64,000 bases of DNA. It comes from an uncultured Bacilli bacterium. GTDB lineage: Bacteria > Bacillota_I > Bacilli_A > RF39 > UBA660. The position numbers were made by a program, and so were the translations under genes. Shown here one piece after another: positions 15,201 through 37,763 of the stretch (its first letter is position 1; the number at the start of each line of letters is the position of its first letter). Under the pieces are notes generated by a model. That model worked only from the letters and a program-made list of their open reading frames with translations, did not search any database and was not told where the DNA came from. Location: assembly GCA_947624175.1 (NCBI GenBank), contig CANQJD010000002.1, forward strand, positions 1,170 to 65,169, in the 5' to 3' direction.

Positions 15201-17774
15201 ACTTGCACTTATCTTCCCACTTGTTGTTACATTTACGTCTGTTGTTGCTAATGTTACTTGACTTAATGAATGTCCACTTACTAAATTACTTGCTGTTGCT
15301 TTACTTACTGATGTATCTATACTTCCTCCATAAGTTATCGTTTGATTTACTGGTGTTATTGTTGTTTCTCTTTGATTGATTGTAAAATTAAAGGTTCCAC
15401 TTGCTAATGCTAAACTATAATTATTTGCTTTAAATCCTTCTCCATCACTTAAAGTTAGATTTCCTAGATTGACTGGATAGGTTCCGACATTTTCTCCTGT
15501 TGTTCTTCCTAACTTTCCTGAGAATACTGGATTTTCTCCTGATATGGCTCCACTGTTTGAATATCCTATAGTTGGCTCAGCATCACCATATGTTTTAGAT
15601 AAATTGCTATTTGGGGTTACTGTTATTTGTTTTTTATTGATTGTTAATGTTCCATCAGCATAACTCAAACTATAGTTTGCTGTTACCTCTGTTTCTCCTG
15701 ACATTATCTTAGCATTACTTGGTGTTATCTTTCCTCCTGGTACATCTTTAGTTGATGCTGTTAAGGTTACAGAACCTAATGTATGATTGGTTACTAAATC
15801 TTTAGCTGTTGCTTGACTTACTGCATTTGTTATTCCTGTTCCATAGGTTACTGTCTGGTTATTTGCTGTTATACTTGCATTCTTTTTATTTATTTTACAT
15901 GTTAAAGTCTTATTTCCTATTGTATTATCACTCCAACGATATCCTTCTTGTAAAGATTCAGTTACTGAATAATTATCTTTAGCATCTACTCCTGAATTAT
16001 TTCCTAAAGTAATTCCTGTTCCACCTGATGCTAAGGCTTGTGATGCTCCATTATAAGTTGGATTTGAACATGTTGCTTCACTTGCTATTTTATAGCCTGA
16101 AACTTTATAAGTTGCACTATTAGATTTATTATAATTCTTAGTATCAGTTGGATTAAAGGTTACTACTACATCTACACTTCCATTTGCAACTCCTGTGATT
16201 GTTATTTCATTGCCATTTACTTTGGTTGTTACTATTCCTTCTTTACTTGTTGTTACGGTATATGTTCCTCCTATACTTGGACTTACGGTTCCGGTTATGG
16301 TTACACTTTTTCCTGCTAATACTTCTCCCGTTTCGCTACTTAAAGTTAACTTAGGAGTTGCTTTAATTATTTCAAAATTAACTGGTGTTTCACTTAGTTT
16401 TAAATTATAATTACTTGCTTTAAATGGTAATTTATCTTCTATATCTAAGGTTCCTTTATTTATAGTATATCTTCCTACATCATTTCCTGGTGTTCTTCCT
16501 AACTTTCCTATAAATCCAGGTTCTTCTATATTCCCTTCATATGTATATGTTAAATCTTTTTCTTCACTTCCATATACTTTACTTTGATTTGAATCTGGAA
16601 TTACTATTAAATCTTTCTTTCCTATACTGCAATTAAACTTAACTTCTGTTTTACTTTCATCATTCCATCTATATCCTGTTTTTAACTTGACTGTTACTTG
16701 ATAACTTCCTGCATCTTTCTGCTTATTATTTTCAAATGTATATCCTTCTTTATTACTTATTATTTCTTGTTCTTCTCCATTATAAGTTCTTGCTATACAT
16801 AACTTATTATTTGGTTTAGTTATATATTTATATTCTATCTTAATCGAAAAATTTTCTCTTGGACTTATCTTTCCATCTGTATAGACTACATAATAATTAT
16901 ATTTTCCAGTTGATTCTGCTATATAATGTCCTTCCCATATTCCATTCTTTTCTATTGGTTCTATATTATCTACTTCACTTGTTGTCTCATCAGTTACTAC
17001 CATCTCATTGGTTTCTTTATCTGATTTAATTATTACTTCTACTTCTTCTCTTACTACTGGAGCACTTTCTAAATCATAATCTTTATTGCTTTCTACCGTA
17101 TAAGCTTCTATGCTAGTTTCTCCTTTGATGATTTCTTTTTCTACAAAGTCTCCTTCTACTTCGACATCTATATTAAAATAACTATTTTCATATTCACTGG
17201 TTGTATAGATATGTTTTCCTTCAAAACTTGTTTCTGTATCACTTACCAAAACATTATCACTTAACCATACTGTTAATTCATATTCTATTTCGACTTTTTC
17301 TTCTTTACTTATATTTCCACTTATTGTATTTGTATATATCATATTTCGATTAAAATCTGATAATCTTCCTGGTCCAAATACATCTTTGGTTTCTCCATCT
17401 TTAGTTTCTGTTAAATATACGACTATATCTTCATCTTTAAATCTTTCTTTACCTGTTTGTTCTTCTCCATATTTTAGATAGATTCCATAATAGATATCTT
17501 TTTTAGAATCATTATATCCTTCTACTTTAAACTTATATTTATTACCATTAGTTTTTCCTTCTTCTTTATCCATTGGTTTTATATTTCCAACGGTTACTTC
17601 GTTGCTAATCGCTTTCATATAAATATCTCCAGCTATTAGTTCTTGATTATCTGCTACTCTTGAATACTTGAATAAACCATATGAAATACCTATTGTTACT
17701 ACTAATACTGACAATATTCCTATTACTAAACTTTTACTTCTTTTCTTTTTCTTCTTTATTAATTCTACTTCCAT
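12201..17774 (-). CDS. Giant (1857 aa) surface adhesin-like protein: N-terminal signal anchor, many Ig-like/MBG-type repeats (T/K-YNG-x-Q), LamG/ConA-like domain, MucBP-like segment
   Basis: Single uninterrupted ORF. Repeats are punctuated by C..TYNGG(S/E)Q motifs. A C-terminal region (...VKFHSYTTVEQQTVLGNQQGKGFGFSL...IRLYINGVLDNYLN...) looks like a LamG/concanavalin-like lectin fold. Paralogous to the gene at 59507..>64000. Confidence 0.8.
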   Translation of the reverse strand: MEVELIKKKKKRSKSLVIGILSVLVVTIGISYGLFKYSRVADNQELIAGDIYMKAISNEVTVGNIKPMDKEEGKTNGNKYKFKVEGYNDSKKDIYYGIYLKYGEEQTGKERFKDEDIVVYLTETKDGETKDVFGPGRLSDFNRNMIYTNTISGNISKEEKVEIEYELTVWLSDNVLVSDTETSFEGKHIYTTSEYENSYFNIDVEVEGDFVEKEIIKGETSIEAYTVESNKDYDLESAPVVREEVEVIIKSDKETNEMVVTDETTSEVDNIEPIEKNGIWEGHYIAESTGKYNYYVVYTDGKISPRENFSIKIEYKYITKPNNKLCIARTYNGEEQEIISNKEGYTFENNKQKDAGSYQVTVKLKTGYRWNDESKTEVKFNCSIGKKDLIVIPDSNQSKVYGSEEKDLTYTYEGNIEEPGFIGKLGRTPGNDVGRYTINKGTLDIEDKLPFKASNYNLKLSETPVNFEIIKATPKLTLSSETGEVLAGKSVTITGTVSPSIGGTYTVTTSKEGIVTTKVNGNEITITGVANGSVDVVVTFNPTDTKNYNKSNSATYKVSGYKIASEATCSNPTYNGASQALASGGTGITLGNNSGVDAKDNYSVTESLQEGYRWSDNTIGNKTLTCKINKKNASITANNQTVTYGTGITNAVSQATAKDLVTNHTLGSVTLTASTKDVPGGKITPSNAKIMSGETEVTANYSLSYADGTLTINKKQITVTPNSNLSKTYGDAEPTIGYSNSGAISGENPVFSGKLGRTTGENVGTYPVNLGNLTLSDGEGFKANNYSLALASGTFNFTINQRETTITPVNQTITYGGSIDTSVSKATASNLVSGHSLSQVTLATTDVNVTTSGKISASGAKIVNGSTDVTSNYKISYGTGTLTINKANVEPGSCANKTYNGGEQTIVNTVGGVNYTATKGIDANTYNITATPDSNHKFSDNAANKTLSCSIAKKTATVTWPAPGTYTYNGSGQGPTPTVASGVNNETINLTVNKPTNAGSNLKTTISIANVSGGRANANNYTLSSTESTTYNIAKATPSLNLSATSGSVNKDSKITFTENSNVKGKFSNVSSLTGVATVSPGTIGEIAANTNQTVTITGAGSGQANINITFTPTDTTNYNNKTGTYNVTGYLVASTGSCQARTYNGGSQTLMSGGVGVSYVNNERTQAGSQNVTINANSGYRFSDNTTSKIQNCSIAKANPVVTLTPTTGTILAGTSTTFKEKANIKGKFGNVSNATGVATVSPGTTGDINPNTDQVVTVTGTGKGETNIAVTFTPSDTTNYNNKTENYKIIVNLVDYKINYYLMRQDKRNYDLGKTVTKSGKVGENVTGELLTFDNQQAPTSKSKVLTANASENVIDYYYTRTCYGAMCEYLARDKKFGEGLYNKRTELGLYESGLSGDTSKQTVRYTGTTTSQPENYVCYGSPSRDDCFKRYYPTYTLVEDGIYCDGIDDFISFGYANYNFYNHVSLILRVKFHSYTTVEQQTVLGNQQGKGFGFSLISNIIHVQMHINGTWLSLYSNSTIDLEKYYTLAAIYDGTQIRLYINGVLDNYLNCSGNIGIPTKNTVLALCTNPYQNTYGNLQEANVTVNKVFVYTDAITPDEITRYFSGEILDYPSDNAIVTPETIEYFNNNLPYTPNNYLHRVVGVYETNHQARLMRNISPGASTFAGATAVNYDASTLKTAVNNNSGLYTTSNISDGVTWYDAINNTSHGTVTLNNLNTLSANDILNKENGNNSTNKLWPLTTSDLLLSTRNNGLKFVNDYGTIATSWLYAPQEWGYHKWDNNYGYYISETGALCGYTGAETANYTQNCGTGANGYFGNAKGYRLFFNTNENLVFCGGSGTNLDPMIIGYKKCVW

Positions 17775-22786: not shown

Positions 22787-23206
22787 TCACCTACAAGCTT
22801 CTATCTCCGTATTTTCATCTATCATACAACCAACTCCATATAAGGCCTTTGTCTCATTCTTTATCACTAAATCTAAATCTATACCCATAAGAGGTAATTC
22901 AAAAGTTACAAAAGTTTTGATTTTATAAACTGCATCTCCATTTGCATTATTGTCATCACCAAGAGTATAACATGATAAATATATTTTATTATTATAATTT
23001 CTAGACCTTAAATTTTCACATAACTCATCTTTACTGGTTATTCTTTCAGCAATACGGCCTTCAGTACGCTCTAATTCAGTAATAACATAATTACTAGCAC
23101 GATAAGTAGCCGCATAGTTCATTATTAACCCTATAAATACAATATAAATAAAGATAAAAATTAAAATAATATAAAATAACATTGAACCACCAACGGCTTC
23201 TCTCAT
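22787..23206 (-). CDS. TadE-like pseudopilin / minor pilin candidate
   Basis: Short N-terminal polar segment, a long hydrophobic helix (LFYIILIFIFIYIVFIGLIM), then ...AATYRASNYVITE...; position and architecture match TadE/TadF-like proteins. Confidence 0.4.
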   Translation of the reverse strand: MREAVGGSMLFYIILIFIFIYIVFIGLIMNYAATYRASNYVITELERTEGRIAERITSKDELCENLRSRNYNNKIYLSCYTLGDDNNANGDAVYKIKTFVTFELPLMGIDLDLVIKNETKALYGVGCMIDENTEIEACR

Positions 23207-23224
23207 ACTAACATCTCCTTAATT

Positions 23225-23401
23225 TTATAAATCTAAATCTTTAACAATCAAAGCATGGCCTGCTTCATTTTCAAATTGACCCCATCTCTTATTAATAGCA
23301 TTTTGAATTTGTGGCCAAAATAAAGCAAATATTCCAACAATTACTCCAACAGCAATGATTGTAACTAAAGTCATACTTAATTCACCACTAGCTTCTTTCA
23401 T
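23225..23401 (-). CDS. Candidate Flp-type small pilin (58 aa)
   Basis: Not in the ORF track. GGAGAT RBS then MKEASGELSMTLVTIIAVGVIVGIFALFWPQIQNAINKRWGQFENEAGHALIVKDLDL: short charged leader ending in Gly followed by a hydrophobic helix, located between the tadC-like and tadE-like genes. The G/xxxxEY Flp motif is not canonical. Confidence 0.35.
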   Translation of the reverse strand: MKEASGELSMTLVTIIAVGVIVGIFALFWPQIQNAINKRWGQFENEAGHALIVKDLDL

Positions 23402-23482: not shown

Positions 23483-24268
23483 TTACATATCCATCATCAT
23501 CATCATCATCGCGATGAATAGAACTAACATTGTTCCACCACCTGTAACCATAAGCATGGCTAAGGTTTTCTTTTCCATTTTATTTAATCTTTTGGCATAT
23601 TTTTGTTCTCTAGCCTTATTTTGTAAAGATGAAACACTTTTAGAAAAGACAACTAATTGTTCTTGTTTATTTTCTTGAGCTCCAATACTTAAACGATATA
23701 AAAGTCGCATCATTCTTAAAGAGTCACGAACTGGATATTGTTCAGCAAACTCTATATATGGATTAATTGAAGAATCACCAGCATCAATCTTTTGAATCAT
23801 TTCAGATAATCCATCTTTAAACATAGCTGGTGCTGTTTCAATGGATTTTGATAAAGCAACGGGAATTGTATAATGTTGAGCAAGTATTTCAATACTTTTT
23901 AAATAATATGGTAAAGTTTGATCAATTTCGGTTAAATGTTTTTTATAATATCCTTTTAAACTAGAATATTGATTTTTATAAACAACAATTATAATTATAG
24001 CACCTATTATTAAATTAATCCAAGAGAAATTAAATAATAAAATAGCAAATATTATAACAATGGCAATGATTAATTGATTGATTCTTTTTTCAAATAATTG
24101 ATTAGCATCAACTTCTCCACCATATCTTGCTTTAACTAAAAATTCATAATCTTTTTCTTTTAATAAATCAAATAAAGCTTTATTATCTTGATATAAATGT
24201 TTAGTATTAATAATTCCTCGATAACTAAGAATAAATACTAGTATTAAGATAAGAATTGCAAATTCCAT
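23483..24268 (-). CDS. TadC-like pilus assembly inner-membrane protein (T2SS-F domain)
   Basis: Roughly 260-aa protein with N-terminal TM, cytoplasmic domain and C-terminal TM pair. Second of two adjacent GspF-like genes after the CpaF ATPase gene; start overlaps the upstream gene's stop. Confidence 0.55.
   Translation of the reverse strand: MEFAILILILVFILSYRGIINTKHLYQDNKALFDLLKEKDYEFLVKARYGGEVDANQLFEKRINQLIIAIVIIFAILLFNFSWINLIIGAIIIIVVYKNQYSSLKGYYKKHLTEIDQTLPYYLKSIEILAQHYTIPVALSKSIETAPAMFKDGLSEMIQKIDAGDSSINPYIEFAEQYPVRDSLRMMRLLYRLSIGAQENKQEQLVVFSKSVSSLQNKAREQKYAKRLNKMEKKTLAMLMVTGGGTMLVLFIAMMMMMMDM
23492..23509. repeat. (CAT)6 trinucleotide repeat encoding a Met6 tail of the TadC-like protein
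   Basis: catcatcatcatcatcat read on the minus strand gives ...AMMMMMMDM* at the C-terminus of ORF 23483..24268. Confidence 0.9.
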
Positions 24269-25173
24269 TACTCAGCCCCCACATTCTCGTTATAATATTT
24301 TTCTCCTGATAGAAGAAAATAACTATTAAATAAAACTACAATATGTAAACCTATTTGCAAAATAATATTATTATTAACCATTTCAATATAGGTTTCTTTA
24401 CCAATTAACCACTGAACTAACATAACCATTAAATATAGAAGTAATCCATATTGAATAAATGATTTATGGAAGGCTTGACGATTCATTCTATCTTGGTAAA
24501 CACCTTCAACTAATTGGTCAACATCAAGTAACATATTATCAAGTACTTCAACGGTATCATGAGCACCTTCTCTCGTTACTTGAAGGAATAATTGATGCAT
24601 ATTTCTAGTCATATAGAAATCATATTTGCTATTCATATAATCAATTGATTCTCCTACATCACCATTATGATAAGCTAAATCAATCATTACTTTAACATCA
24701 GTTTTAACAGGATCTTCTAAAACACCTGAATCATATACTCCTTCTAAAGCTTTTACAAAAGATTGTGTTATTTGAAATTCCATTATCGTATTTGTAACAT
24801 AAACTTGGATTTGTTCAAAGATAAATTCACTATAAAGTCGCTTACATCTAAGATAGGCAAGATAAGGGATAAATGAAACAACTACTACAACATAGATAAC
24901 TGAAATAATAATATTATAGAAATAAAGATAAGATATAACAAAAGCAACAACTGCAAACGTAATAGTTTGGATTATATATTGCTTTTTAGTATATTCAAGT
25001 CCCATTTCTTTACATTTTTCTCTAATTACCTTAAACGAATATGGTGCATATTTATCATAAACATTTCCTAAACTTGTAGAAATGAATTTATAAAAAGATT
25101 CTCCATTGCTTTTTCGATATAAAACTATAAAGACAGCAATAAGTAAGATAATTAAAAATTCCATTTGCATCAC
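24268..25173 (-). CDS. TadB-like pilus assembly inner-membrane protein (T2SS-F domain)
   Basis: 301 aa with GspF-like topology, immediately downstream of the CpaF-like ATPase gene (4-nt gap). Confidence 0.55.
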   Translation of the reverse strand: MMQMEFLIILLIAVFIVLYRKSNGESFYKFISTSLGNVYDKYAPYSFKVIREKCKEMGLEYTKKQYIIQTITFAVVAFVISYLYFYNIIISVIYVVVVVSFIPYLAYLRCKRLYSEFIFEQIQVYVTNTIMEFQITQSFVKALEGVYDSGVLEDPVKTDVKVMIDLAYHNGDVGESIDYMNSKYDFYMTRNMHQLFLQVTREGAHDTVEVLDNMLLDVDQLVEGVYQDRMNRQAFHKSFIQYGLLLYLMVMLVQWLIGKETYIEMVNNNIILQIGLHIVVLFNSYFLLSGEKYYNENVGAE

Positions 25174-25177
25174 CTCT

Positions 25178-26524
25178 TTATAAAAATTCTTCTATTTGAT
25201 TATTTTGAGTTTGAGTAGCCCCTACTGGAACTTCTTGAGTTACGGGAGCACTTCCTATTCCACTTGCCATCGGCATAGTTGGATTAAAATTAGATAAAGT
25301 ATCTGCAACAGGAGTAGTTACAGGAGTTGGACTTGGTACAGTCTGCACATTTGGAACAGTATTCGTATCACTCTTATCTTCTTGGAAAGGAGCGATATTT
25401 TTCATATTTTGAATTTCTTTTTTACTTAAATCAACCCCTTGAGCCTCTAAATAATCAATTAAATGCTCACTCGGTGGATTAAGGATTTCCGTTCCATCAA
25501 TATTTTTTCTATAGATTGTATTTGACTCTGGTTTATTCTCTTCATTAACAAAGAATTCCGTTACTTCACATACTTCTCTTAAAAACTTACCCGTTCCTTT
25601 TTCATAACGAGCCCGAACGTGAACACCTAACTGAATATAACGATAAATGGTTGTCATGAATTGTTCAACATCAATATTACTTTCAAGTAAACTATATAAA
25701 CGATAAGGAATACTTGCAGCTTTATCAGCATGGATAGTTGATAAAATATTATGTCCTGATGAAATAGAGTTACGAACGGCACTTACAGCTTCCGCTGAAC
25801 GAACTTCGGAAAGTAATATCCATTTAGGATTTTGCCGCATACAAGCAACTAATACATCACTGTATGATGCAATATTATTGGTTTTCATTGCAACAATATC
25901 CCTCTCAGGGAAAATTGAATCTAAGTGCAACTCTAAAGTATCCTCAATTGTAATTATTTTTTCATTTTCTCTCGTATGACTTGCTAAATATTTAACAAGC
26001 TCCGTTTTACCACTACCAGTTTCTCCACTAACGATAATATTACAATGACCCCTGACACATTCAATCAAAAAGTCATGAATATCATTAGTTATATATTTTT
26101 CTTCAATTATTTTTTCTTTCTTTAATCTTATTTTAGCCGGTGTTTTCCGAAATACAGCTGCTATTCCATTTCTGGCAATTGAATCATGAATAAAGTTCAT
26201 ACGAAGTTCAGCAGATTCACTATCTAACATTGGACTTGCCATATTAAACGTTTTACCCATAATATTAGCACATTGGAAAGCAATTTTTTCCATAAGTTCA
26301 TTATTAATACCAGGATTATCAATTCGATAAACACCTTTATCAAGGGATTTTAACCATACTTGACCATTATTACTATAAGAAATATCAGTAATATTATCAT
26401 CATCTAAATAAGGTTTTAAAGCACCAAAATCGATATTTGAAAATAAGCTAGCATTAATTTCTGTATTGGTTTTATTAGGATCACTAGCTGGATTTAATTC
26501 ATAGGCATTTATAGTTGGATTCAT
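25178..26524 (-). CDS. CpaF/TadA-type secretion ATPase (VirB11 family) with Pro/Thr-rich C-terminal tail
   Basis: Walker A VSGETGSGKTEL, Asp box and His box (ILLSEVRSAEA...STIHA) of the CpaF/TadA family. A C-terminal extension of roughly 60 aa is low-complexity (TPVTTPVADT...). Confidence 0.85.
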   Translation of the reverse strand: MNPTINAYELNPASDPNKTNTEINASLFSNIDFGALKPYLDDDNITDISYSNNGQVWLKSLDKGVYRIDNPGINNELMEKIAFQCANIMGKTFNMASPMLDSESAELRMNFIHDSIARNGIAAVFRKTPAKIRLKKEKIIEEKYITNDIHDFLIECVRGHCNIIVSGETGSGKTELVKYLASHTRENEKIITIEDTLELHLDSIFPERDIVAMKTNNIASYSDVLVACMRQNPKWILLSEVRSAEAVSAVRNSISSGHNILSTIHADKAASIPYRLYSLLESNIDVEQFMTTIYRYIQLGVHVRARYEKGTGKFLREVCEVTEFFVNEENKPESNTIYRKNIDGTEILNPPSEHLIDYLEAQGVDLSKKEIQNMKNIAPFQEDKSDTNTVPNVQTVPSPTPVTTPVADTLSNFNPTMPMASGIGSAPVTQEVPVGATQTQNNQIEEFL

Positions 26525-26535
26525 ACTATCACCTA

Positions 26536-27342
26536 TTATTGTTCTGTTTCTTCTTGATTTTCTTCAGTATCTAGCTTAACATCTTCATCAATCGTTGTAG
26601 CTTTAGAATTTATATATTCTTTAATTGTTTCACTAGTTACATTAGTTTTAACTGTTTCACCATCTACTTCCAATGAAGCATTAGTTGGAACTAAAATAAT
26701 TTCAGCATTTCTGATATATTCAGCTTTTCTTAACAACATATGCATTTCATTAGTAACTTGAAAAATTATTTGACTTGGAGCTCTATCCTCAGTTGTTGAT
26801 TCAAATACATGTCTTCCACTTGAATCTTTAACAGCTAATATTTTAACATTTTCAATTAATTTACCAATCATGATTAATCCTGCATCATCTTCACCTTTAA
26901 AGTAAACATCTACATAGTTACCTGGATACATAGAATTACCATAAGTAGATCTAATATCTACATCAAAGTCATAAGCAACATATCCTTCTTCAATATCAAT
27001 CAAGAATGAATCAGGTAAATCTTCTTTTCTTACAACTTGACTTGCATAAAATAAACTACCAGCTGGAATATTAGTTTGAGAATACATACCTAATATTTGA
27101 GTATTTGCATTAGTCAAAACATTACCTTTCATAGCTGATTGAGATATTTCAAGATATCCAATCATATCACTGGTAATTTCTTTTCTTGGGTCAATGGCTT
27201 GAAGAGCATAAGGAACCCGAACTGGACTTGTTGCTTGACTTACTCTCCAGTTATAGAAAAAGTAAAGTACCAAAACTCCTAAAATAACACCAATAACTGT
27301 AACCGTATTTTTGTTGGCTAAAATTTGTTTTAATTTTTTCAT
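26536..27342 (-). CDS. CpaB/RcpC-like Flp pilus assembly protein (SAF domain)
   Basis: N-terminal TM (TVTVIGVILGVLVLYFFY) followed by a SAF-like domain; position immediately upstream of the CpaF-like ATPase gene matches cpaB. Confidence 0.65.
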   Translation of the reverse strand: MKKLKQILANKNTVTVIGVILGVLVLYFFYNWRVSQATSPVRVPYALQAIDPRKEITSDMIGYLEISQSAMKGNVLTNANTQILGMYSQTNIPAGSLFYASQVVRKEDLPDSFLIDIEEGYVAYDFDVDIRSTYGNSMYPGNYVDVYFKGEDDAGLIMIGKLIENVKILAVKDSSGRHVFESTTEDRAPSQIIFQVTNEMHMLLRKAEYIRNAEIILVPTNASLEVDGETVKTNVTSETIKEYINSKATTIDEDVKLDTEENQEETEQ

Positions 27343-27359: not shown

Positions 27360-27950
27360 TTATTTATTATTTAATTTTTCTTCAAAGATAGCATCAACTT
27401 GGTTTCTAATATTAAAGTCACCTTCATCAAATGTTAAAGTTGTTGACTCACTTGAATTATAGGTATTATAAGTATCTATTCTTATACTTACTTTAGGTGG
27501 ATATTCAATAACATCTTGAACAGTTACTCGATAACTTTTATTATTATTTACATTCTCTGCAAATCTTCTTATAAAACTTTCTACAAATACATCAGCATTT
27601 ATTTTAACTTCACCATATAAGTCTTGGCAACTATTTTTACCATAAGTTTTATCTAAATTTTCTTGAGTGATTTGCTTATCTTTATTTTTTAATATAATCT
27701 CATAATCCTCTTTGCTATCAAACACCAATTTTCCATTATCAACTGTATATTTTCCAGGAATCGGACAAAGATAAAATCCTCCACGATATGAAGCTCTATC
27801 AATAGCATCATACATTGATGCTTCAACCGTATTTCTAATTAATGTATAATCTTGTTGATTGGTTGTTGTTATGTTACCAAAAATATTAATTAAGACAGTT
27901 CCAAATATTCCAATTATGAAAAGCATAACTGCCCACATTGCTACTTTCAA
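27360..27950 (-). CDS. Hypothetical signal-anchored protein of the Tad-like locus
   Basis: N-terminal hydrophobic helix (MWAVMLFIIGIFGTVLINIF) and a 170-aa extracytoplasmic domain. Possibly a TadG/pseudopilin-like component, but no motif support. Confidence 0.35.
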   Translation of the reverse strand: MKVAMWAVMLFIIGIFGTVLINIFGNITTTNQQDYTLIRNTVEASMYDAIDRASYRGGFYLCPIPGKYTVDNGKLVFDSKEDYEIILKNKDKQITQENLDKTYGKNSCQDLYGEVKINADVFVESFIRRFAENVNNNKSYRVTVQDVIEYPPKVSIRIDTYNTYNSSESTTLTFDEGDFNIRNQVDAIFEEKLNNK

Positions 27951-28029: not shown

Positions 28030-28686
28030 TTACAAATCTTCTTTTTTCTTTTTCTTCAATATAACAAAGACTACTACTCCTGCTATAATAACTCCTACTC
28101 CAATTCCTATATAAATAAATACTTTTTTATCTAATTTATTTATTATTTCATTAATATTAGGATTTAAATACTCTTCAAATTCTTTATCAATATCTTCAAA
28201 CTCTACATTATCAGTATCCATAAATTCTTTGCAATATTTAAATTCTTTATTATCATTACATTTTTCTTTATTGAAATAATAATAATCATTTACTTTAGGT
28301 AATTCAATGCTTACTGTTCTTAATATTTCATCAGTACATAAATTAGTTGTATAAGAATATATTTTAAAAGTAATTTTATCACCATCAGCTAAATTATTTA
28401 TTTCTTTAGTATCAGATTTTATTGTTCCTTCTTCTTCATATTTACTTGTATATTCAATTCGTAAATCAGAATTAAAATTTATTATTTCAACTTTATAATT
28501 TACTTCAACACTTTTATTATCTTCATCAACATAACCTATTTCATAACTAGGTTTAAACTCAACATTTTTGGCTAGTTCTTTTAATCTCTCCATTTCACTA
28601 TTAGTACATGCTTCATAAGCATCTACCTTTAAAGAAGTAAATAGGAATAACAAAATCGTTAGTAAACAAATTTTCAGATATTTCAT
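28030..28686 (-). CDS. Cys-containing type I membrane protein (paralog b; 218 aa)
   Basis: Signal peptide (...SLKVDA), 5 conserved Cys, C-terminal TM (IYIGIGVGVIIAGVVVFVIL) followed by KKKKKEDL. About 45-50% identical to 33648..34304. Its start overlaps the stop of the 808-aa VWA protein gene by 4 nt. Confidence 0.5.
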   Translation of the reverse strand: MKYLKICLLTILLFLFTSLKVDAYEACTNSEMERLKELAKNVEFKPSYEIGYVDEDNKSVEVNYKVEIINFNSDLRIEYTSKYEEEGTIKSDTKEINNLADGDKITFKIYSYTTNLCTDEILRTVSIELPKVNDYYYFNKEKCNDNKEFKYCKEFMDTDNVEFEDIDKEFEEYLNPNINEIINKLDKKVFIYIGIGVGVIIAGVVVFVILKKKKKEDL

Positions 28687-31109
28687 CCTGCCACCTCATC
28701 TTTAAATTTAGCACTATAAAACCATCTACGACCACTAGTAACATCTTCCCCTTGACCATTTCTAGTAAATTCACATATAAATCGGTTGTTATCAGTAAAA
28801 TGACAATTTCTTCCTAAATAACTATTTTTAGTATCTTCATTTGTATCTTTTTTAATGTTATTGATATTAGTTTTACTTAATAAATACTCATATTCTGCTT
28901 CTTTAGAATCACTCCAAGTATTCTCATCGATTATCTTTTCAAAATCAAATCTTGTATTTAAATAATTACTACCTACTCCCCGATTTATATCATATTTTTT
29001 TAAGAATGGATCAGTTAATTCTATTTGTCTATAATTAATATTACTTAATTTATCTTCTCCATTAAACTCACATTCAAGTTTATCATCACTACCATTTTTC
29101 TTAAGTTCAATATCAAGATCTCCATTATAACCAGCATTAGATACTTTTATAGTTATATAACCACTATTTTCTTTTAATTTAGTATAAGCATTATTACCAC
29201 CTAATATCTGATTATTAGATTCATTACTACAGCTTTCTTGGTCTCCTGTTTGCATATTTAAACAACTTTCTTTTATTTGCATTTCTTTACTAAAACTTGC
29301 ATAACAAGTAGTTGAAGTAGTTCTATTTACCCCATTAATTTTTTCTGTTTTATTAGTAGTACATTTAATATTACTAGTATTTACTTTTTCTTTTACATTT
29401 TCATAACTAAACTTATCTGGAGAAGATTTACTATTGTTATAAGTTATTTTTAATTCAGCACCTTGATCTTCAAATCTTTTAGCATAATTTTTTAAATCTT
29501 CTTGAGTATTAAAGTTTAAATAATTTTGTAAAACTGAATTAAGTTTTTCTAATTTTTTAGCAGCACTTACTTGTTCTTTCAAATCTTCAGATTTTAATCC
29601 TTTCTCTGCTTCATTATATTTTTCATTAAATATTGTCGTATTAAATTTATAAGTACAGACAACATTAGTACTCATTTTTAATGAAGATGGGAAACCTGTA
29701 CCAGCTAAAATATTAAATTTTCTTACTCCAACATCTAAATTATTAACTATAGCTTCGGTTGTAAAACCATTTTTGTTAACTCCATTTTCCATATAACCTT
29801 CACGACAACTTTTAGTAAAGATTTGATTTTCATCACTTTCATCTTCTCTAACAGTACCAGCTGTTGATGAACCATGACATGTATGTAAATTTAAATCATA
29901 TGGTATCCAATAAACTTCTGGATTTACATCAACACCTATTGTTTTTTCATTACCTTCTTCATCAGTATAAGTTAAATTAAAGTTTTCATTGGTCTCATGC
30001 CAACCTCCACCATCACTTTCATTACCTTTAGCATATTGATTAATCTCAATTTCAAAACTTGGAGAAGTCCAACCTGATTCGGTTAATCTACCAACATTAA
30101 ATCTTTGATAATCACCAACATCATCAGTTAAATAGAAATCATCTCCTATTCTATCAGTTAAATCTGTAGTAAATGATGTACTACCTTCTTCAACATTTTC
30201 TTTTATTTGTTCAGCTATTTTTTGAAATAATGTATTTAAATCACCACTTGCATCATTATATATAGTAACTAATTGTTGCATCATTTTAGTATCACAAGTT
30301 TTATAAGTGCTTCCACTACTACAACCAGCATTCCGACAAGCACTATTCCAAGTAAGTTTACTACCTAAAGAACTTCCATCATATCTAATTCCATAAATAC
30401 TAACCCCCATATTTTTTAAACTTTTTGCTCTGCTTTTAGCTGTTCCAGGATTAGTATCATTAGGAGACCAATATCTTCCATCTCCAAAAATAACTACAAA
30501 TTTCTTTTCATCACCTTTTGGAAAGTTAACTTGTCCTAAAGCTTTATCTATATATGATTTATGTCCTCCTAAATTATTGTATCCTCTAAAGCCAACTTTA
30601 TCAAAGTTAGAATTCTTAAAGCCATTAGTTACATCATAAGAATTAGTTGCAAATTGAATAAGTTTTAGATAATAATTAGAACTTCCATTCTCATTACTTG
30701 GGATTAATGTTCGTGCAAAAGTCTGAGCAGCTGATTGAACAGTTGATATTTTACTTTTAATTGTTTTAGAATAATCTAATACCAAAGCTATATAAGCTTT
30801 TTCAGCTGACTTTTTTTGAGATACATTTTTACCTTTAATATTAAACTTTACATAATAATGCCCTAATTCATCTAACTTTTTAGTTACAGTTTTAGTTATT
30901 TGAATATCTCCATTTTTTTCTAAACTACCATATACTAAATCTACTTTTGTAACTACTCCTTGATTATTTTTAGTTTCATAACATTTTACATTAGATGGTA
31001 AATTCAAAGGACATCTTAAATCTCCTCTTTCATATTTAGTTTCAGCTTTAACAGGTATACTTATTAATATTAAAACTATTAATATAATTAATTTTACTTG
31101 TTTTTTCAT
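28683..31109 (-). CDS. Large secreted VWA-domain protein (808 aa), Cys-rich C-terminal region
   Basis: Signal peptide (...IPVKAETKY), VWA domain with MIDAS-like LVLDYSKT and FVVIFGDGRY motifs, long Cys-containing C-terminal region, no LPXTG and no C-terminal TM. Paralog of 31128..33638. Confidence 0.7.
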   Translation of the reverse strand: MKKQVKLIILIVLILISIPVKAETKYERGDLRCPLNLPSNVKCYETKNNQGVVTKVDLVYGSLEKNGDIQITKTVTKKLDELGHYYVKFNIKGKNVSQKKSAEKAYIALVLDYSKTIKSKISTVQSAAQTFARTLIPSNENGSSNYYLKLIQFATNSYDVTNGFKNSNFDKVGFRGYNNLGGHKSYIDKALGQVNFPKGDEKKFVVIFGDGRYWSPNDTNPGTAKSRAKSLKNMGVSIYGIRYDGSSLGSKLTWNSACRNAGCSSGSTYKTCDTKMMQQLVTIYNDASGDLNTLFQKIAEQIKENVEEGSTSFTTDLTDRIGDDFYLTDDVGDYQRFNVGRLTESGWTSPSFEIEINQYAKGNESDGGGWHETNENFNLTYTDEEGNEKTIGVDVNPEVYWIPYDLNLHTCHGSSTAGTVREDESDENQIFTKSCREGYMENGVNKNGFTTEAIVNNLDVGVRKFNILAGTGFPSSLKMSTNVVCTYKFNTTIFNEKYNEAEKGLKSEDLKEQVSAAKKLEKLNSVLQNYLNFNTQEDLKNYAKRFEDQGAELKITYNNSKSSPDKFSYENVKEKVNTSNIKCTTNKTEKINGVNRTTSTTCYASFSKEMQIKESCLNMQTGDQESCSNESNNQILGGNNAYTKLKENSGYITIKVSNAGYNGDLDIELKKNGSDDKLECEFNGEDKLSNINYRQIELTDPFLKKYDINRGVGSNYLNTRFDFEKIIDENTWSDSKEAEYEYLLSKTNINNIKKDTNEDTKNSYLGRNCHFTDNNRFICEFTRNGQGEDVTSGRRWFYSAKFKDEVAG

Positions 31110-31127
31110 TATTCACTCCTTATAATC

Positions 31128-33638
31128 TTAATTTGATTCTGGAAATTTAGCATTTGTAAACCATTGTCCTTCATTAACTCCATTTTCTATTTTATTTCTT
31201 GTAAAACTACATTGATATTCATTAGAATCTGTAAAATAACAATTTTTACCTAAATAACTATTTTTGGTATCTTCAGCAGTATCTTTTATTATTTTTTCTA
31301 TATTAACTTTGCTAATAAAATAATCGTATTCCATCGCTTGAGAATTAGCCCAAGTATCTTCATGAATTATCTTTTGAAAATCAAAGGTTTTATTTAAGTA
31401 ATTTCTTCCTACTCCTCGATTTATATCATAATTTTTTAAGAATGGATCAGCTAACTCTATTTGTCTAAACATTATATCTCCCATTCCGTTATTATTGGCC
31501 GTAAAGGAACAACCATCATTTTCATTAGTCTTCTTTAAATGAAAATCTAAATTACCACGATAACCTGCTTTTAATACATCAACATTAATTTCCCCACCAT
31601 TAGCTTTCATTTTTATATAAAATTTATGGTTTCCATCTAGTTGAGCTTTTTCAGCTGAACAAGGTTCTTGTTCTCCCGTTTGCATACTTAAACAAGTTTT
31701 AGGTAATTCCATACTTTTAGAAAGTGAAACATAGCAAGTTTTATCCGTAGCTATTGAACTACCATTTACGTTACTTGTAGCTTTAGTAGTACAATTAATT
31801 GATGTTTTGACATTATCTGTATTTACAAAATTAATTTCTTCTGAATCATTTATATTTTTATAAGTAACTTTTAAAACAGCTGGTTGATCTATAAAACGAT
31901 TCTTATAATTTTCTAAATCATTATTTTGAGATAACATTTTATAATTTTCTAATATATCATCATATTTTTGTAGTTGAACTGTTAGTCCCGCTGCTTCTTT
32001 ACTTTCAGGTTCTGCTTGATTTAAAGCTCTAACTATTCGTTGATATTCTTTATTAAATTTTTCATTATCAAATTTATAACGGCATATCATATTAGTACTT
32101 ATGTCAATAGCACTTGGAAAACCTAAACCTGATAATAAATCAAACTTAGTTACACCATCATTTTGATTGTTTATTTTAACGGCTACTCTATAACCATTTT
32201 TATAATTTCCTTTTTCATCATTATATCCTTCATAGCAAATTCTTGAATAGAATGAATATTCATCACTATCATCTCCACCTCTTATGGTATCAGCTGTTTT
32301 ACTATCAGAACAAGATTCTAGAGTTGTACTATTAGGAATCCAATATACTTCTGGATTATCTTTTATAGTAAATGTTTTTAGTTCTCCATCTTCAGCTGTA
32401 TAATTTAAAGTAAAGTTTTCATTAGTTTTATGCCAAAATTCTTCCAAACCATCTGCCATTCCAGCTTTTGGATCAGCATAAGGATCTATTTCTATTTCAA
32501 AAACAGGACTTACATATCCTTTTTCATCAATAGTAGGAATATCAAATCTTTTATATCTTCCTGATTCATCAGTTAAATAAAACTCATCACCTATTTTATC
32601 ACTTATACCACCTGTAACTGTTGATGAATTATAATACAAATCATCTTTTATAGCTTGTAATATCTGATTAAACTCAGTAGTATAATTATTTTTATCAGCT
32701 GCATCAGCAAAAATAGGAGCAACCTTTTTCATATATATTAAATCGCAAGCCCGATAACTTTTTCCTCGACAATCTACAACATAATTATTCTTACTATTTA
32801 CATTACCACCATAATTTTTCGTAGCACCATTATAATGAACTCCAAATCTAGTAACATCTAATGCATCAAAAAGATCTAAATAATGTTCAACAGAATTATT
32901 ACCATGTTTTGACTTTCTCCATCTAGTTGTACAATTATTTTTATTTCCTCCATTACCTTCACCATTACAAGTACTACTAGGATAATCTAAATAATATCTT
33001 CCATCTCCAAAAACTACTATATATTTTTTTCCTTCAACTGATTTTATCATATCATATGCTTTGCTTAACCCTTTTTCAAGATGGGAAGATAAACCGAAAT
33101 CACCACTTGCACTAGTAATAGGAGAATTCATTAAATTTCTACTTTTTTTTGCAGATGATGCGAATTGAACAAGTCCAACATAAAAATTATCATTATCTTG
33201 GGTTAAACTTTTTGAAAAGCTTTTAATTGCTGAAACAGCTGCACTTTTATTAGACATAGTTTTAGATTTATCAAAGACAATTACAACATTTACTCGCCCA
33301 TTTATTGCCTTTTGTTGAGAAACATTACTACCATTAAGTTTAAACTGAACAGTATAATGTCCTAAAGTATCAGTCTTTTTAACAATTTTAGTAAGTTCAA
33401 AGTGTCCACCATCACTTAATGTCTCATTATAAGTTATATCAACTTCAACAACTTTTCCATTTTCAGAAATTGCATTACAATGAACTTTTTCACCATTGCT
33501 TATATGTTGAGGACATCTTAAATCTCCTTTTTGATATTCTGTCTCATCAGCTTTTATATCTTTATTATTCAATAAAACAATTAAACTTATAGGTATAATA
33601 ATTATTAATAATTTAATTGCTTTTTTTAATATCTTCAT
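31128..33638 (-). CDS. Large secreted VWA-domain protein (836 aa), paralog of 28683..31109
   Basis: Signal peptide (...DIKADETEY), VWA motifs VVIVFDKSKT and YIVVFGDGRY, conserved C-terminal block (QIEL.DPFLK.YDINRGVG.NYLN...). Confidence 0.7.
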   Translation of the reverse strand: MKILKKAIKLLIIIIPISLIVLLNNKDIKADETEYQKGDLRCPQHISNGEKVHCNAISENGKVVEVDITYNETLSDGGHFELTKIVKKTDTLGHYTVQFKLNGSNVSQQKAINGRVNVVIVFDKSKTMSNKSAAVSAIKSFSKSLTQDNDNFYVGLVQFASSAKKSRNLMNSPITSASGDFGLSSHLEKGLSKAYDMIKSVEGKKYIVVFGDGRYYLDYPSSTCNGEGNGGNKNNCTTRWRKSKHGNNSVEHYLDLFDALDVTRFGVHYNGATKNYGGNVNSKNNYVVDCRGKSYRACDLIYMKKVAPIFADAADKNNYTTEFNQILQAIKDDLYYNSSTVTGGISDKIGDEFYLTDESGRYKRFDIPTIDEKGYVSPVFEIEIDPYADPKAGMADGLEEFWHKTNENFTLNYTAEDGELKTFTIKDNPEVYWIPNSTTLESCSDSKTADTIRGGDDSDEYSFYSRICYEGYNDEKGNYKNGYRVAVKINNQNDGVTKFDLLSGLGFPSAIDISTNMICRYKFDNEKFNKEYQRIVRALNQAEPESKEAAGLTVQLQKYDDILENYKMLSQNNDLENYKNRFIDQPAVLKVTYKNINDSEEINFVNTDNVKTSINCTTKATSNVNGSSIATDKTCYVSLSKSMELPKTCLSMQTGEQEPCSAEKAQLDGNHKFYIKMKANGGEINVDVLKAGYRGNLDFHLKKTNENDGCSFTANNNGMGDIMFRQIELADPFLKNYDINRGVGRNYLNKTFDFQKIIHEDTWANSQAMEYDYFISKVNIEKIIKDTAEDTKNSYLGKNCYFTDSNEYQCSFTRNKIENGVNEGQWFTNAKFPESN

Positions 33639-33647
33639 GAACTCCTC

Positions 33648-34304
33648 CTAAAAATCATCAGTTTTCTTTTTTCTTTTTACAATTAAAACTATAATGGTAA
33701 TTAATACAACAATTCCTACTAATCCACCAATTATATACCATAATAAATTATTAGTAATTTTTGAAGTTATACTATCTTCTTTTAAATACTCATCAAATTC
33801 TTTATCTATTTCTTTAAAGTCTATATCTTCAACGTTCATAAATTCTTTACAATATTCAAAATCTGGATTAGCATCACATTTTTCTTTGTTAAAATAATAA
33901 TAATCATTATAACTTGGAAAATTTACTGTATAAGTTTTTAATAACCTTTCTGTACATAAGTTATTAGTATAAGAATAAATTTTAAAGTCTACTTTACTAT
34001 TTTCTGAAAAAATATCTTCAAATTCAGAAGTTGAAGTTAATTCAATTGGATCAGATTCTGAATCTAATTGATAAATAATTTTTAAATCTGGATCAAAATT
34101 AATAAATTTAGCACTATACTCAAGATATAAACTTTTATTTTCATCATCAACATCCATTTCATAACTTGTTTGAATTTTAAAGTTTTTAGCTAATTCTCTT
34201 AATCTTTCCATTTCAGTATTAGTACAAGATTGTATAGCATTAACCTGTAAGTTTACTAAAAAAGTAATTATAAATAATAACCCTAAATATATTTTTCTTT
34301 TCAT
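33648..34304 (-). CDS. Cys-containing type I membrane protein (paralog a; 218 aa)
   Basis: Signal peptide (...NLQVNA), conserved Cys pattern shared with paralog b, C-terminal TM (YIIGGLVGIVVLITIIVLIV) plus KRKKKTDDF. First gene of the operon. Confidence 0.5.
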   Translation of the reverse strand: MKRKIYLGLLFIITFLVNLQVNAIQSCTNTEMERLRELAKNFKIQTSYEMDVDDENKSLYLEYSAKFINFDPDLKIIYQLDSESDPIELTSTSEFEDIFSENSKVDFKIYSYTNNLCTERLLKTYTVNFPSYNDYYYFNKEKCDANPDFEYCKEFMNVEDIDFKEIDKEFDEYLKEDSITSKITNNLLWYIIGGLVGIVVLITIIVLIVKRKKKTDDF

Positions 34305-34356: not shown

Positions 34357-34395
34357 TATCTTTTACTTATGTTATTATATTTTTTGAGGTGTTTT

Positions 34396-34788
34396 ATGAA
34401 AAAATTTATATTAGTAATTACAATTTTACTATTAACTTGTGCTTGTTCTAATAGTCTTAAAAGTATTAAAATTGATAATTTAGAAAAAAAATTAAATAAT
34501 AAGGAAAGTTTTGTATTATGTTTAATTAATGATGAAGAGGAAGGATTAACTTTGAAAAAAACTTTAGGAAAAGTTATTAAAGATAAAAAAATAGATTCAT
34601 TTTTTATCAATACAGACAAATTAAACGATAATGATGAAGAAAAACTTGAAAATTTATTTACTTATGAAGATTCTAATATTATTATCTTTATAAAGAAAGG
34701 TCAAGAAAATTCGGTTTTATCAAGAATAACTGATCCTTTTATAAATGAAAAAGACTTACAGAAAGAATTAGAAGAACAAGGATACTAA
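34396..34788 (+). CDS. Hypothetical lipoprotein
   Basis: Start taken at MKKFILVITILLLTCACSNS (lipobox LLTC-A-C) within the longer track ORF 34369..34788; GAGGTG RBS. Confidence 0.5.
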   Translation: MKKFILVITILLLTCACSNSLKSIKIDNLEKKLNNKESFVLCLINDEEEGLTLKKTLGKVIKDKKIDSFFINTDKLNDNDEEKLENLFTYEDSNIIIFIKKGQENSVLSRITDPFINEKDLQKELEEQGY

Positions 34789-34791
34789 AAG

Positions 34792-34830
34792 AGACTATCA
34801 AGAAGTTATATATTTCTTGATAGTCTTTTT
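34792..34830. terminator. Bidirectional rho-independent terminator between the lipoprotein gene and dnaJ
   Basis: Perfect 13-bp stem AGACTATCAAGAA / TTCTTGATAGTCT with a 9-nt loop, flanked by an A-run and a T-run. Confidence 0.65.
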
Positions 34831-34844
34831 AAATACGATTTTTT

Positions 34845-35969: not shown

Positions 35970-37763
35970 CTACTTTCTATAAATTTCTTGAAACTCCTCG
36001 ATTGCCTCTTTAAACATCATAATAGCATCTTCAATAAATTTAGGATTTTTAATATCAACATCACAGACTAATAACTCATCAGCTGGATCCATTGAACCAC
36101 CAGTTTTTAAGAATGATAAATATTTTGAAACAGCTTCCTCTCCTTTAGTTTCTATATCATGAACTATCTTACAAGCAGCAGATAAGCCTATTGCATATTT
36201 ATAAACATAGAAGTTATAGTAGAAATGTGGTATTCTCATCCATTCATATTTAATTAAATCATCACATACTACCCCTTCTCCAAAATAATCTTTAACTAAT
36301 TTATAGTATGCTTGACTTAAATATTCGTTTGTTAAGATTGTTCCCTCTTCAGAGTCCTCTGCCATCTCTTTTTCAAATTCTGCAAACATGGTTTGTCTAT
36401 AGATAGTTCCTTTAAATAATTCTAATAATTTATTAAGTAAAAATAACTTTTCTTTTTTATCATCGGTTTTCTTAAGCAAATATTTAACTAAAATTAATTC
36501 ATTAACGGTTGATGCAACTTCAGCAACAAAGATTTGATAACTTGATGTGTTAAATGGATTATTCTCACAAGAATATAAAGTATGCATTGAATGTCCTAGT
36601 TCATGAGCAAGTGTTGTTACATCATTATAAGTACCTTCAAAGTTTAAAAGGATATAAGGGTTAGTATCATAGAAACCACTTGAATAAGCTCCTCCTCTTT
36701 TACCTTGATTATTATAAATATCAATAAATCTTTCTTTAAAAGCTTTTTCTAGTTTTTGATGATAATCATCACCTAAAACACTTAATCCTTCAAGAACGAT
36801 ATCTTTAGCTTCATCGAATGTATACTTTTTATCAACTTCGCTTACCATACTAGCATATACATCATATAAATGAAGTTCATCTAAACCTAAAACTTCCTTT
36901 TTTAAGGCATAATAATCATATAAGGTATCTAAATTCTTTCTTACAGTTTTAATTAGATTATCATAAACTTCAACTTGAATATTATCAGCATATAAACTAG
37001 ACTCAATACTTGAATTATAATTTCTTAATTTAGCAAGTTTGGAGTTAACTTCTATATTATATTTAAAAGTATTAGCAATGGTATTTTTATACTTACTATA
37101 AGTATTAAACAAAATATCAAAGGCTTGTTTTCGAACTTCTCTATTACTTGATTCAATGAAAGTTGAATAATTACTTTCCGTGAATTCAATTTCTTCTCCA
37201 TCAACATTGATGTTTCCAAATTTCATATCCGAGTCCGTCAATGCTTCATAGATATCTTCGCTGGCTCCCAAGGAATCGCCTAAAGTTGAAAGAATTTTTT
37301 CTTCATCTTCACTTAAAGTATGACTTTTAAAACGATATAAACGTTCTAAATTATATTTATACTTTAGTAATTTAGGTTCATCCTTATAAAATTTTTCAAT
37401 TGTTTGATAATCCCCTTTTAATAATTCAGGGTCAACAAATGATGACATTGAAGATGATTCAACCATAAGTTTCGTTACTAAACCTACTAATTCTTGACTT
37501 TTCGTATTGGTCGTATCAACATCAAAACTTAAATGAGCATAGTAATATAATTTATAAAGTTTTCTATCTAGTTTATCAGTTAGTTCTAAAAATTCAAGTA
37601 ATGTTTTAGCATCTTTAAGTAATTTTCCTTTATAATTTAAGATTTCTTTTTGTTCTTCTTTTAATGAGTTATAATCTTTCATAAATAGATCTTCATTTTT
37701 ATAAATTACTTCTAAATCCCACGTATCTTTTTTAGCTATTTCACTTCGTAATTTTTGTTTCAC
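35970..37763 (-). CDS. pepF: Oligoendopeptidase F (M3B family)
   Basis: HELGH zinc motif (LAHELGHSMH) in a roughly 600-aa protein with PepF-like architecture; located between dnaK and dnaJ. Confidence 0.8.
   Translation of the reverse strand: MKQKLRSEIAKKDTWDLEVIYKNEDLFMKDYNSLKEEQKEILNYKGKLLKDAKTLLEFLELTDKLDRKLYKLYYYAHLSFDVDTTNTKSQELVGLVTKLMVESSSMSSFVDPELLKGDYQTIEKFYKDEPKLLKYKYNLERLYRFKSHTLSEDEEKILSTLGDSLGASEDIYEALTDSDMKFGNINVDGEEIEFTESNYSTFIESSNREVRKQAFDILFNTYSKYKNTIANTFKYNIEVNSKLAKLRNYNSSIESSLYADNIQVEVYDNLIKTVRKNLDTLYDYYALKKEVLGLDELHLYDVYASMVSEVDKKYTFDEAKDIVLEGLSVLGDDYHQKLEKAFKERFIDIYNNQGKRGGAYSSGFYDTNPYILLNFEGTYNDVTTLAHELGHSMHTLYSCENNPFNTSSYQIFVAEVASTVNELILVKYLLKKTDDKKEKLFLLNKLLELFKGTIYRQTMFAEFEKEMAEDSEEGTILTNEYLSQAYYKLVKDYFGEGVVCDDLIKYEWMRIPHFYYNFYVYKYAIGLSAACKIVHDIETKGEEAVSKYLSFLKTGGSMDPADELLVCDVDIKNPKFIEDAIMMFKEAIEEFQEIYRK

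Follow-up and report, generated by a model that had tools for sequence, protein, structure and literature searches.

Introduction

Adhesins that carry a VWA (von Willebrand factor A) head on type IV or Tad pili currently attract interest in work on how bacteria sense surfaces, prey on other cells and colonize hosts. PilY1, of type IVa pili, is a non-pilin VWA protein of the pilus tip that is docked on minor pilins through a conserved C-terminal part. To our knowledge, every VWA adhesin described on type IV or Tad pili is fused to a pilin or is a PilY1-type protein from a diderm bacterium. The Csc/WxL clusters of lactobacilli and enterococci encode secreted surface proteins that have no covalent anchor, beside a small protein that is anchored in the membrane by its C-terminus. 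The top structural analogues of the VWA protein CpaL are SpaC and RrgA (PMC12607857), and in Myxococcus there are several alternative tips per pilus, the exchangeable Kil tips (PMC12075869). A type IV-like system with CpaF and DUF5411 proteins, uncharacterised as yet, has been predicted in gut Clostridia (Miller et al. 2022; PMC9523054). Here we analyze a four-gene module in a 64,000-nt stretch of DNA from an uncultured Bacilli bacterium of the RF39 lineage (contig CANQJD010000002.1, positions 1,170 to 65,169, assembly GCA_947624175.1; hereafter the window). The module has two genes for a small membrane protein, which we call S, and two genes for a large VWA adhesin, which we call B.

We conclude that an S gene and a B gene make up a previously undescribed two-gene unit. 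The S family and the C-terminal block of B are unannotated, widespread and tightly coupled to each other, and the coupling spans many uncultured gut and rumen Firmicutes. What is new is an adhesin similar to SpaC and RrgA that has no sorting signal or pilin module and is coupled to S (~220 aa) and to this C-terminal block. We postulate that S and B form a surface-adhesin cassette in which S docks B at the membrane through the block, and that this cassette is present twice in the window, leading a Tad-like operon. We give this reading a probability of about 0.5.

The S and B proteins

The four genes are open reading frames (ORFs) at the place that the first-pass annotation gave for them, and all are on the minus strand:

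33648..34304, minus strand: S1, a 218-aa type I membrane protein
31128..33638, minus strand: B1, an 836-aa Sec-secreted adhesin with a VWA head and its MIDAS (metal ion-dependent adhesion site), a C-terminal module and a terminal block
32994..33290, minus strand: the portion of B1 that matches Pfam VWA_2 (aa 117-215), which includes the MIDAS residues D123, S125, T127, S185 and D212
31131..31496, minus strand: the C-terminal block of B1 (aa ~715-836)
28683..31109, minus strand: B2, an 808-aa paralogue of B1
28686..29060, minus strand: the C-terminal block of B2 (aa ~684-808)
28030..28686, minus strand: S2, a 218-aa paralogue of S1, with a 4-nt overlap between its start and the stop of B2

The first-pass annotation held that the two small proteins are paralogues and that the two large proteins are paralogues, and pairwise alignment bore out both claims. 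Identity is 45% over 214 aa for the S proteins (E=7e-61) and 40% over the full length for the B proteins (E=0). Hydropathy likewise agreed with the topology proposed for S. Both S proteins have an N-terminal signal segment and a C-terminal transmembrane segment at residues 191-209, followed by a basic tail (KKKK-x-D-D/E-L/F). The pattern of five shared cysteines did not hold up: four are conserved (27, 117, 143 and 152), and the fifth cysteine of S2 sits in its signal peptide. Two motifs are also conserved in S, CTxxEMxRLKELAxNV and LPxxNxYYYFNKEKC...FKYCKEF, and the ectodomain of S1 spans residues 24-186. An AlphaFold2 model of S1, with a predicted local distance difference test score (pLDDT) of 84, has four parts: one short helix, a beta-sandwich of seven strands, a small helical knot that contains cysteines, and a 55-residue helix that ends as the transmembrane segment.

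S belongs to a large family. Searched with a profile, 1.84 billion cluster representatives yielded 1,420 members, 592 of them below 1e-10, and a word-indexed search yielded 23 close relatives. Family members are uniformly ~210-230 aa long, and the carriers include metagenome-assembled genomes (MAGs) of uncultured Bacilli from rabbit, human (Hadza), roe deer and sheep rumen. No member is named in any source, and the family is unannotated. Fold searches with the S1 model gave weak matches to FN3/Ig-like domains (E>=0.03), and profile searches of Pfam, the PDB and other collections gave matches to the transmembrane segments alone.

Several candidate relationships of S were rejected. S1 scores 22.9 against a cut-off of 22 for the sorting-signal family GG_III-CTERM (NF041738), yet only 5 of 42 diverse S proteins match, and the S1 match is a generic one to a transmembrane segment with a basic tail. 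A match to EssA was confined to the transmembrane region. Homology of S to B, to the DUF5411 protein, to the CpaB-like protein or to the 139-aa protein of the same operon was dismissed on the basis of hhalign, which aligned signal peptides only. Pfam found no N_methyl motif in S or B, and both have classical signal peptides.

In B, the N-terminal block Y(E/Q)(R/K)GDLRCP that the first-pass annotation described is indeed present in the alignment of B1 and B2, and the VWA MIDAS that it proposed is well supported at the sequence level. The metal-site residues D123, S125, T/S127, S185 and D212 are conserved in all 26 of 26 members of the B family. B1 passes the Pfam cut-offs for VWA_2 (29.9 vs 27 bits; 8.9e-7) and VWA (24.9 vs 23.8), as the only one of the two: B2 has no Pfam match of its own, despite its full-length homology to B1. 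Two relatives of B (P0025 and P0026) also match Pfam VWA/VWA_2, and a word-indexed homology search for B returned at least 6-7 proteins. A profile of B matches SpaC of L. rhamnosus GG over residues 73-351 (E 8.6e-10). The AlphaFold2 model of B1 (pLDDT 68, and <50 over the last 120 residues) shows beta domains and a helical hairpin, followed by the low-confidence tail. Its best PDB matches in Foldseek are SpaC (2.4e-14), PitA (6.7e-12), RrgA (8.3e-11) and GBS104 (1.8e-10). Thus modeled, the predicted fold of B is a beta-sandwich with an inserted VWA domain, as in the tip adhesins of sortase pili.

B has an N-terminal signal segment and no C-terminal hydrophobic segment. Its C-termini, as read in the two proteins (...WFTNAKFPESN and ...WFYSAKFKDEVAG), contain neither LPXTG nor another sorting signal, and they lack a transmembrane segment. 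The first-pass annotation had likewise reported the absence of LPXTG and of a C-terminal transmembrane segment. Neither a pilin module nor a C-terminal beta-propeller of the PilY1/PilC type was detected in B with Pfam. There was no Pfam match to WxL, DUF916 or DUF3324 in S or B at E<=0.1, and no sortase or backbone pilin family among the 12 operon genes and their flanks.

A B-type N-terminal VWA half also occurs in a metagenomic protein of 1314 aa (P0030; 25% identity, 52% of B1), where it is fused to MucBP repeats. This similarity suggests that the B-type head may be reused in mucus-binding adhesins.

Coupling of S to the C-terminal block of B

The best conserved part of B is its C-terminal block. 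Identity between B1 and B2 is 56-64% over residues 701-800 and 20-30% over residues 151-350. The VWA region is the most divergent part of the two proteins and the C-terminal block the least, in keeping with the first-pass annotation, which had singled out a conserved block of ~120 aa at this place. At the DNA level the block is a 284-nt direct repeat with 78% identity (D1; 28758-29041 vs 31194-31477). It has the signature (Y/F)RxIxLxDPF...RxxGxN(Y/W)...YxYxL...IxxI(K/R)...SYLGxxC...CxF and no relative in Pfam or the PDB.

We annotated 73 fetched loci with hidden Markov models (HMMs) built in this analysis, and counted the partners of the 47 distinct S genes that have enough downstream sequence. 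By automatic count, the gene directly after S carries the C-terminal module of B in 38 cases. Three more (in L001, L003 and L021) join these once overlapping ORF starts are corrected. S2 of the window has its B upstream instead of downstream, and S2 of L030 was scored as having another partner only because its upstream B fragment is too short to count. The last four are an orphan S, an S followed by a pilin-like gene, and a locus that is present on two contigs (L066/L067), where the gene after S encodes a true N_methyl pilin that has a BspA-type leucine-rich repeat (LRR) module.

The N-terminal heads of the S partners vary, and what is conserved is the C-terminal half; at the greatest distances, only the last ~120 residues are. 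The module, which covers residues 440-836 in B1, is recognized in the genes after S with jackhmmer E-values of 1e-54 to 1e-73. More distant partners are recognized by hhalign (probability 94.7, L062/L064) or by the HMM of the block (1e-9 to 1e-10, L071/L072). It had been asked whether the S family always neighbors VWA proteins. S does mostly precede a gene with the B module, but the constant part of the partner is the C-terminal block and not the VWA head. The linkage of S to the block holds from >80% down to ~20-25% identity in S, in Tad-linked and in stand-alone settings, and after a swap in gene order. Judged by these neighborhoods, S is coupled to the C-terminal block of its partner across the whole family.

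The trees of S and B are congruent. Both S2 and B2 of the window group with the second pair of L009 and with the single pair of L004.

Gene order of the module

The first-pass annotation described the four genes as a mirror arrangement, S-B-B-S. The order itself is real and was confirmed on related contigs. Nothing in it is inverted, and it is a permutation particular to one lineage. All four genes are on one strand and the DNA repeats between the copies are all direct, which excludes an inverted or mirror duplication. The mirror is a matter of gene order only, with no functional symmetry or mechanistic meaning, and the arrangement is of little consequence on its own.

The order is not an assembly error, because independent or related contigs agree with it. 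L007, an independent assembly, has S1-B1-B2 and ends inside B2, and in L029 and L030 B2 comes first, followed by S2 with an identical overlap of 4 nt and by DUF5411, as in the window. B2 stands before S2 only in the clade made up of the window, L007, L029 and L030; in all other lineages S stands before B.

The second cassette of the window is orthologous to the second pair of L009. B2 is 56% identical to L009 B2 (bootstrap 98) and 42% to L009 B3, and it also groups with the B of L004, which has just one. S2 shares 56% identity with L009 S2, 52% with L004 S and 40% with L009 S3, in a clade with a bootstrap of 69. These orthologues in L009 and L004 stand in the usual order, S then B, and the window order is therefore a permutation of cassette 2. 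We considered that S2 might be the remnant of a third cassette, left by two deletions in an ancestor that was S-B-S-B-S-B as in L009, and rejected this since S2 and B2 are closer to pair 2 of L009 than to pair 3. The likeliest route, we infer, is a tandem duplication that gave S2-B2-S2-B2, after which the first S2 and the last B2 were lost. The locus varies between one and three cassettes, which fits a history of duplication and then loss.

The Tad-like operon and its relatives

The four-gene module is the 5' end of a tightly packed operon of 12 genes, and the borders 28030-34304 cut this operon. Spacing within it, all on one strand, ranges from the 4-nt overlap of B2 and S2 to gaps of 81 nt. 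Going by the sequences of the remaining genes, the S/B module most likely heads a Tad-like (type IVc) pilus operon, a context that the first-pass annotation did not notice. These genes, and the divergent gene upstream of S1, are:

27360..27950, minus strand: DUF5411 protein, 196 aa, with an N-terminal transmembrane segment (PF17424, 8.3e-37)
26536..27342, minus strand: CpaB/RcpC-like protein, 268 aa (RcpC 2.4e-6; SAF; TIGR03177 3.9e-11, under its cut-off)
25178..26524, minus strand: CpaF/TadA-type secretion ATPase, 448 aa (T2SSE 1.9e-27)
24268..25173, minus strand: polytopic membrane protein in the TadB position, 301 aa, with 5 hydrophobic segments (named by position and topology only)
23483..24268, minus strand: polytopic membrane protein in the TadC position, 261 aa (named by position and topology only)
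23225..23401, minus strand: Flp-like pilin, 58 aa, with leader MKEASG and a hydrophobic helix (Flp1_like E 0.008, under the cut-off)
22787..23206, minus strand: candidate TadE/F-like minor pilin, 139 aa, with leader MREAVG and a hydrophobic helix
21775..22782, minus strand: cytoplasmic protein, 335 aa, encoded by the operon's final conserved gene (a TadZ-like function would be a guess)
34369..34788, plus strand: lipoprotein gene, ~130 aa, divergent from S1, with a likely start at 34396 (MKKFIL...LLTCAC|S)

No HMM supported the names TadB and TadC (T2SSF) or TadZ, which we use by position only, and none matched the 139-aa protein. The proteins in the TadB and TadC positions are both conserved in all Tad-linked loci. 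The Flp-like 58-aa protein and the 139-aa protein (22787-23401, minus strand) share a conserved leader, M(K/R)EAxG, which suggests that a prepilin peptidase may cleave both. No prepilin peptidase (TadV/CpaA) is evident among the operon genes, the part of the window and genome that was screened for one.

The layout recurs in 16 distinct loci: a divergent lipoprotein gene, one to three S-B cassettes, and then DUF5411, CpaB, CpaF, two membrane proteins, Flp, the 139-aa protein and the 335-aa protein. Among these Tad-linked loci are those of P0159 and P0167, which diverge the most of all S proteins accessible to look-up. In some 20 uncultured Bacilli of the gut that are related to the window, and in metagenomic lineages further away, the order is always S then B, with one to three repeats, and the unit usually lies immediately upstream of DUF5411. 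In every Tad-linked locus, DUF5411 follows the last S/B cassette. In a sheep-rumen MAG (L027, 6049-13689), the duplicated unit is S-B-DUF5411 instead of S-B. This repeat unit, read as sequence, points to a functional link between DUF5411 and the cassette.

Some cassettes have no pilus genes nearby. In a rumen-type clade, S-B cassettes stand alone beside housekeeping genes, and in L032, L035, L036, L039 and L073 there is no Tad gene within 4-10 kb. Because S-B occurs away from Tad genes, the tie between S and B is tighter than the tie between S and the pilus. L039 (2770-13432) has one S followed by three, possibly four, B-module genes that have near-identical C-termini and N-terminal membrane anchors in place of signal peptides. 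In L066 (4703-6409; the same locus as L067), 10 nt separate a distant S from the next gene downstream, which encodes a 345-aa protein with the N-terminal methylation motif of type IV pilins and BspA-type LRRs, and PilC- and PilD-like genes lie 2-3 kb upstream. The partners of the distant S proteins in L066 and L068 both match N_methyl.

Homologues of the divergent lipoprotein occupy the same position in at least 17 loci, though the housekeeping genes beyond them differ (dnaJ in the window; frr, queH and others elsewhere). The protein, which has the lipobox LLTCAC|S, has no significant database match. We rejected the idea that it is a thioredoxin that oxidizes Cys-rich partners, as it has no CXXC and its matches to thioredoxin are at E ~0.5. 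Between the convergent lipoprotein gene and dnaJ is an inverted repeat (34783-34835; 22 nt, 86% complementary, 9-nt loop), which is probably a two-way terminator.

Other features of the window

A scan for promoters and terminators was uninformative, with 108 promoter-like sites against 105 expected in the AT-rich DNA of the window, and Rfam had no match within the window. Two further genes on the minus strand encode surface-type proteins of 1857 aa (12201-17774) and 1110 aa (59507-62839) with MBG_2 plus Laminin_G_3 or DUF6273. Relatives of the 1857-aa protein flank the S-B locus in L020 and L028. In the rumen clade, large proteins that end in a GDGSxxNPYxI-like motif are encoded near S-B cassettes. 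A gene for a 597-aa protein (35970-37763, minus strand) lies between dnaK and dnaJ, an unusual insertion in a chaperone operon. By eye, it looks like an M3-type oligoendopeptidase with an HELGH motif.

Discussion

We suggest the following model for the cassette. B would be exported by Sec, and its N-terminal beta-sandwich, with the inserted MIDAS-containing VWA domain, would be the adhesive head. S would sit in the membrane as a type I protein, with a small disulfide-bonded ectodomain on a helical stalk, and would grip the C-terminal module of B, above all the terminal ~120 aa, which would keep B on the membrane's outer side. In this role S could be a permanent anchor of B or a dock that hands B on to the pilus. 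Additional cassettes would then provide several alternative heads on a common base in one cell. We infer both the binding of S to B and the final location of B. The stand-alone cassettes favor a self-sufficient S-B complex, whereas the deep linkage to Tad genes, the S-B-DUF5411 repeat unit and the pairing of S with a pilin favor a connection to the pilus.

The first-pass annotation proposed that each S is a dedicated membrane receptor, anchor or chaperone for one B. Part of this is supported: the pair is conserved, the trees are congruent, the spacing is tight, B is unanchored and S is a type I membrane protein. Strict one-to-one pairing fails in L039, where a single S serves as neighbor to three or four B genes. 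Other observations also weigh against docking by S. In HMM, fold and PDB profile searches, S resembles no known anchor or chaperone family. The C-terminal block gives no readable fold or interface, because it is modeled at pLDDT <50. One S, in L058, is an orphan, and the distant S of L066/L067 directly precedes a type IV pilin that has no C-terminal block and needs no anchor. In addition, adjacency and tree congruence are expected anyway of neighbors that were duplicated together, and thus the congruent trees are no proof of binding.

This last point could be taken further, such that S and B are co-inherited neighbors with independent functions and S is, for example, a separate surface protein or a subunit of the machinery. 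Neither adjacency nor congruent trees require binding, and an orphan S and S genes next to pilins exist. However, the linkage of S to the C-terminal block is kept down to ~20-25% identity in S, in two settings and after a swap in order, and S and B are tightly spaced or overlapping. We find independence of the two proteins very unlikely. We think about as little of the possibility that the Tad-like machine serves to carry B through the wall, as a piston or as a secretion device akin to type II systems, with S as a pilot or sorting receptor that presents B to it. The operon linkage of the cassettes with Tad genes is compatible with such a device, as is the prediction that the CpaF/DUF5411 system of gut Clostridia is secretion-related (PMC9523054), and a preprint (PMC11580942) offers the hypothesis that one type IV pilus gene set of Clostridium perfringens acts in a type II-like manner on a matrix protein. 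But B already carries a normal Sec signal peptide, stand-alone cassettes exist, and the adhesin-type head of B argues for display and not for release.

It is possible, if still unlikely, that B is a tip adhesin of the Tad-like pilus that is carried, as PilY1 is, on minor pilins, for which the DUF5411 protein and the 139-aa protein are candidates. S would then be an assembly chaperone or hand-over factor, and the cassettes would be interchangeable tips. The linkage of the cassettes to the pilus operon is tight, in 16 loci and over the full depth of the S family, and the duplicated unit of L027 includes DUF5411. VWA proteins are established or proposed at the tips of type IV or Tad pili (PilY1, PilB, CpaL and TadG; PMC12607857, PMC12075869), and a distant S adjoins a modular pilin in L066/L067. 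Against this, there are the S-B cassettes with no Tad gene within 4-10 kb, and B has no pilin module and, in Pfam searches, no C-terminal domain of the PilY1 type. The DUF5411 protein has no detectable similarity to the putative 139-aa pilin and, in the clade of the window, no leader that ends in Gly, and the operon has no prepilin peptidase gene. A related idea, which we consider rather doubtful, starts from the geometry of the S model, in which a globular head sits on a membrane-spanning C-terminal helix of 55 residues, as in a pilin but with the opposite polarity. S might be a pilin-like adaptor of reverse topology that mounts Sec-exported non-pilin adhesins on the tip of a monoderm Tad-like pilus via the C-terminal block. 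If so, S would be a previously unknown way to arm type IV filaments with interchangeable heads, and would account for the use, in the absence of a sortase, of adhesins that are folded like the tip pilins of sortase pili.

We favor docking of B at the membrane by S. If S is an anchor or loader, then the S-B unit is a new and widespread means to display exchangeable adhesins in gut bacteria with reduced genomes, and two large unannotated families acquire names and testable roles.

The described systems resemble this locus in different respects. The Csc/WxL clusters are alike in concept, with a small membrane protein beside secreted partners; they have no homology to S or B and are an analogy only. 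The comparison with PilY1 draws in part on PMC12607857. Like B, PilY1 is a Sec-exported non-pilin protein with an N-terminal VWA domain and a conserved C-terminal part, and is tied to a type IV machine. In contrast to PilY1, B has no detected PilY1/PilC C-terminal domain, its system is monoderm and Tad-like, and it is accompanied by S, for which PilY1 has no known equivalent. CpaL, TadG and PilB are similar to B in that a VWA head is tied to a Tad or type IV pilus locus. Each of the three is a fusion of a VWA or other module to a (minor) pilin, with a pilin helix at the N-terminus and a site for prepilin cleavage, whereas B has an ordinary signal peptide with no N_methyl motif, and the topology of S is opposite to that of a pilin.

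The tip adhesins of sortase pili (SpaC, RrgA, GBS104 and PitA) are, like B, proteins of ~800 aa with a VWA domain and MIDAS inserted in a beta-sandwich. Unlike them, B lacks LPXTG and a C-terminal transmembrane segment and ends in a novel conserved block, and its gene accompanies those of a Tad-like type IV system and not those of a sortase and pilin subunits. The system predicted by Miller et al. is from Clostridia, whereas ours is from uncultured Bacilli, and PMC9523054 describes no S-like protein, C-terminal block or repeated cassettes. The two systems share a CpaF ATPase, a membrane platform protein and DUF5411, in each case beside an adhesin- or invasion-like protein.

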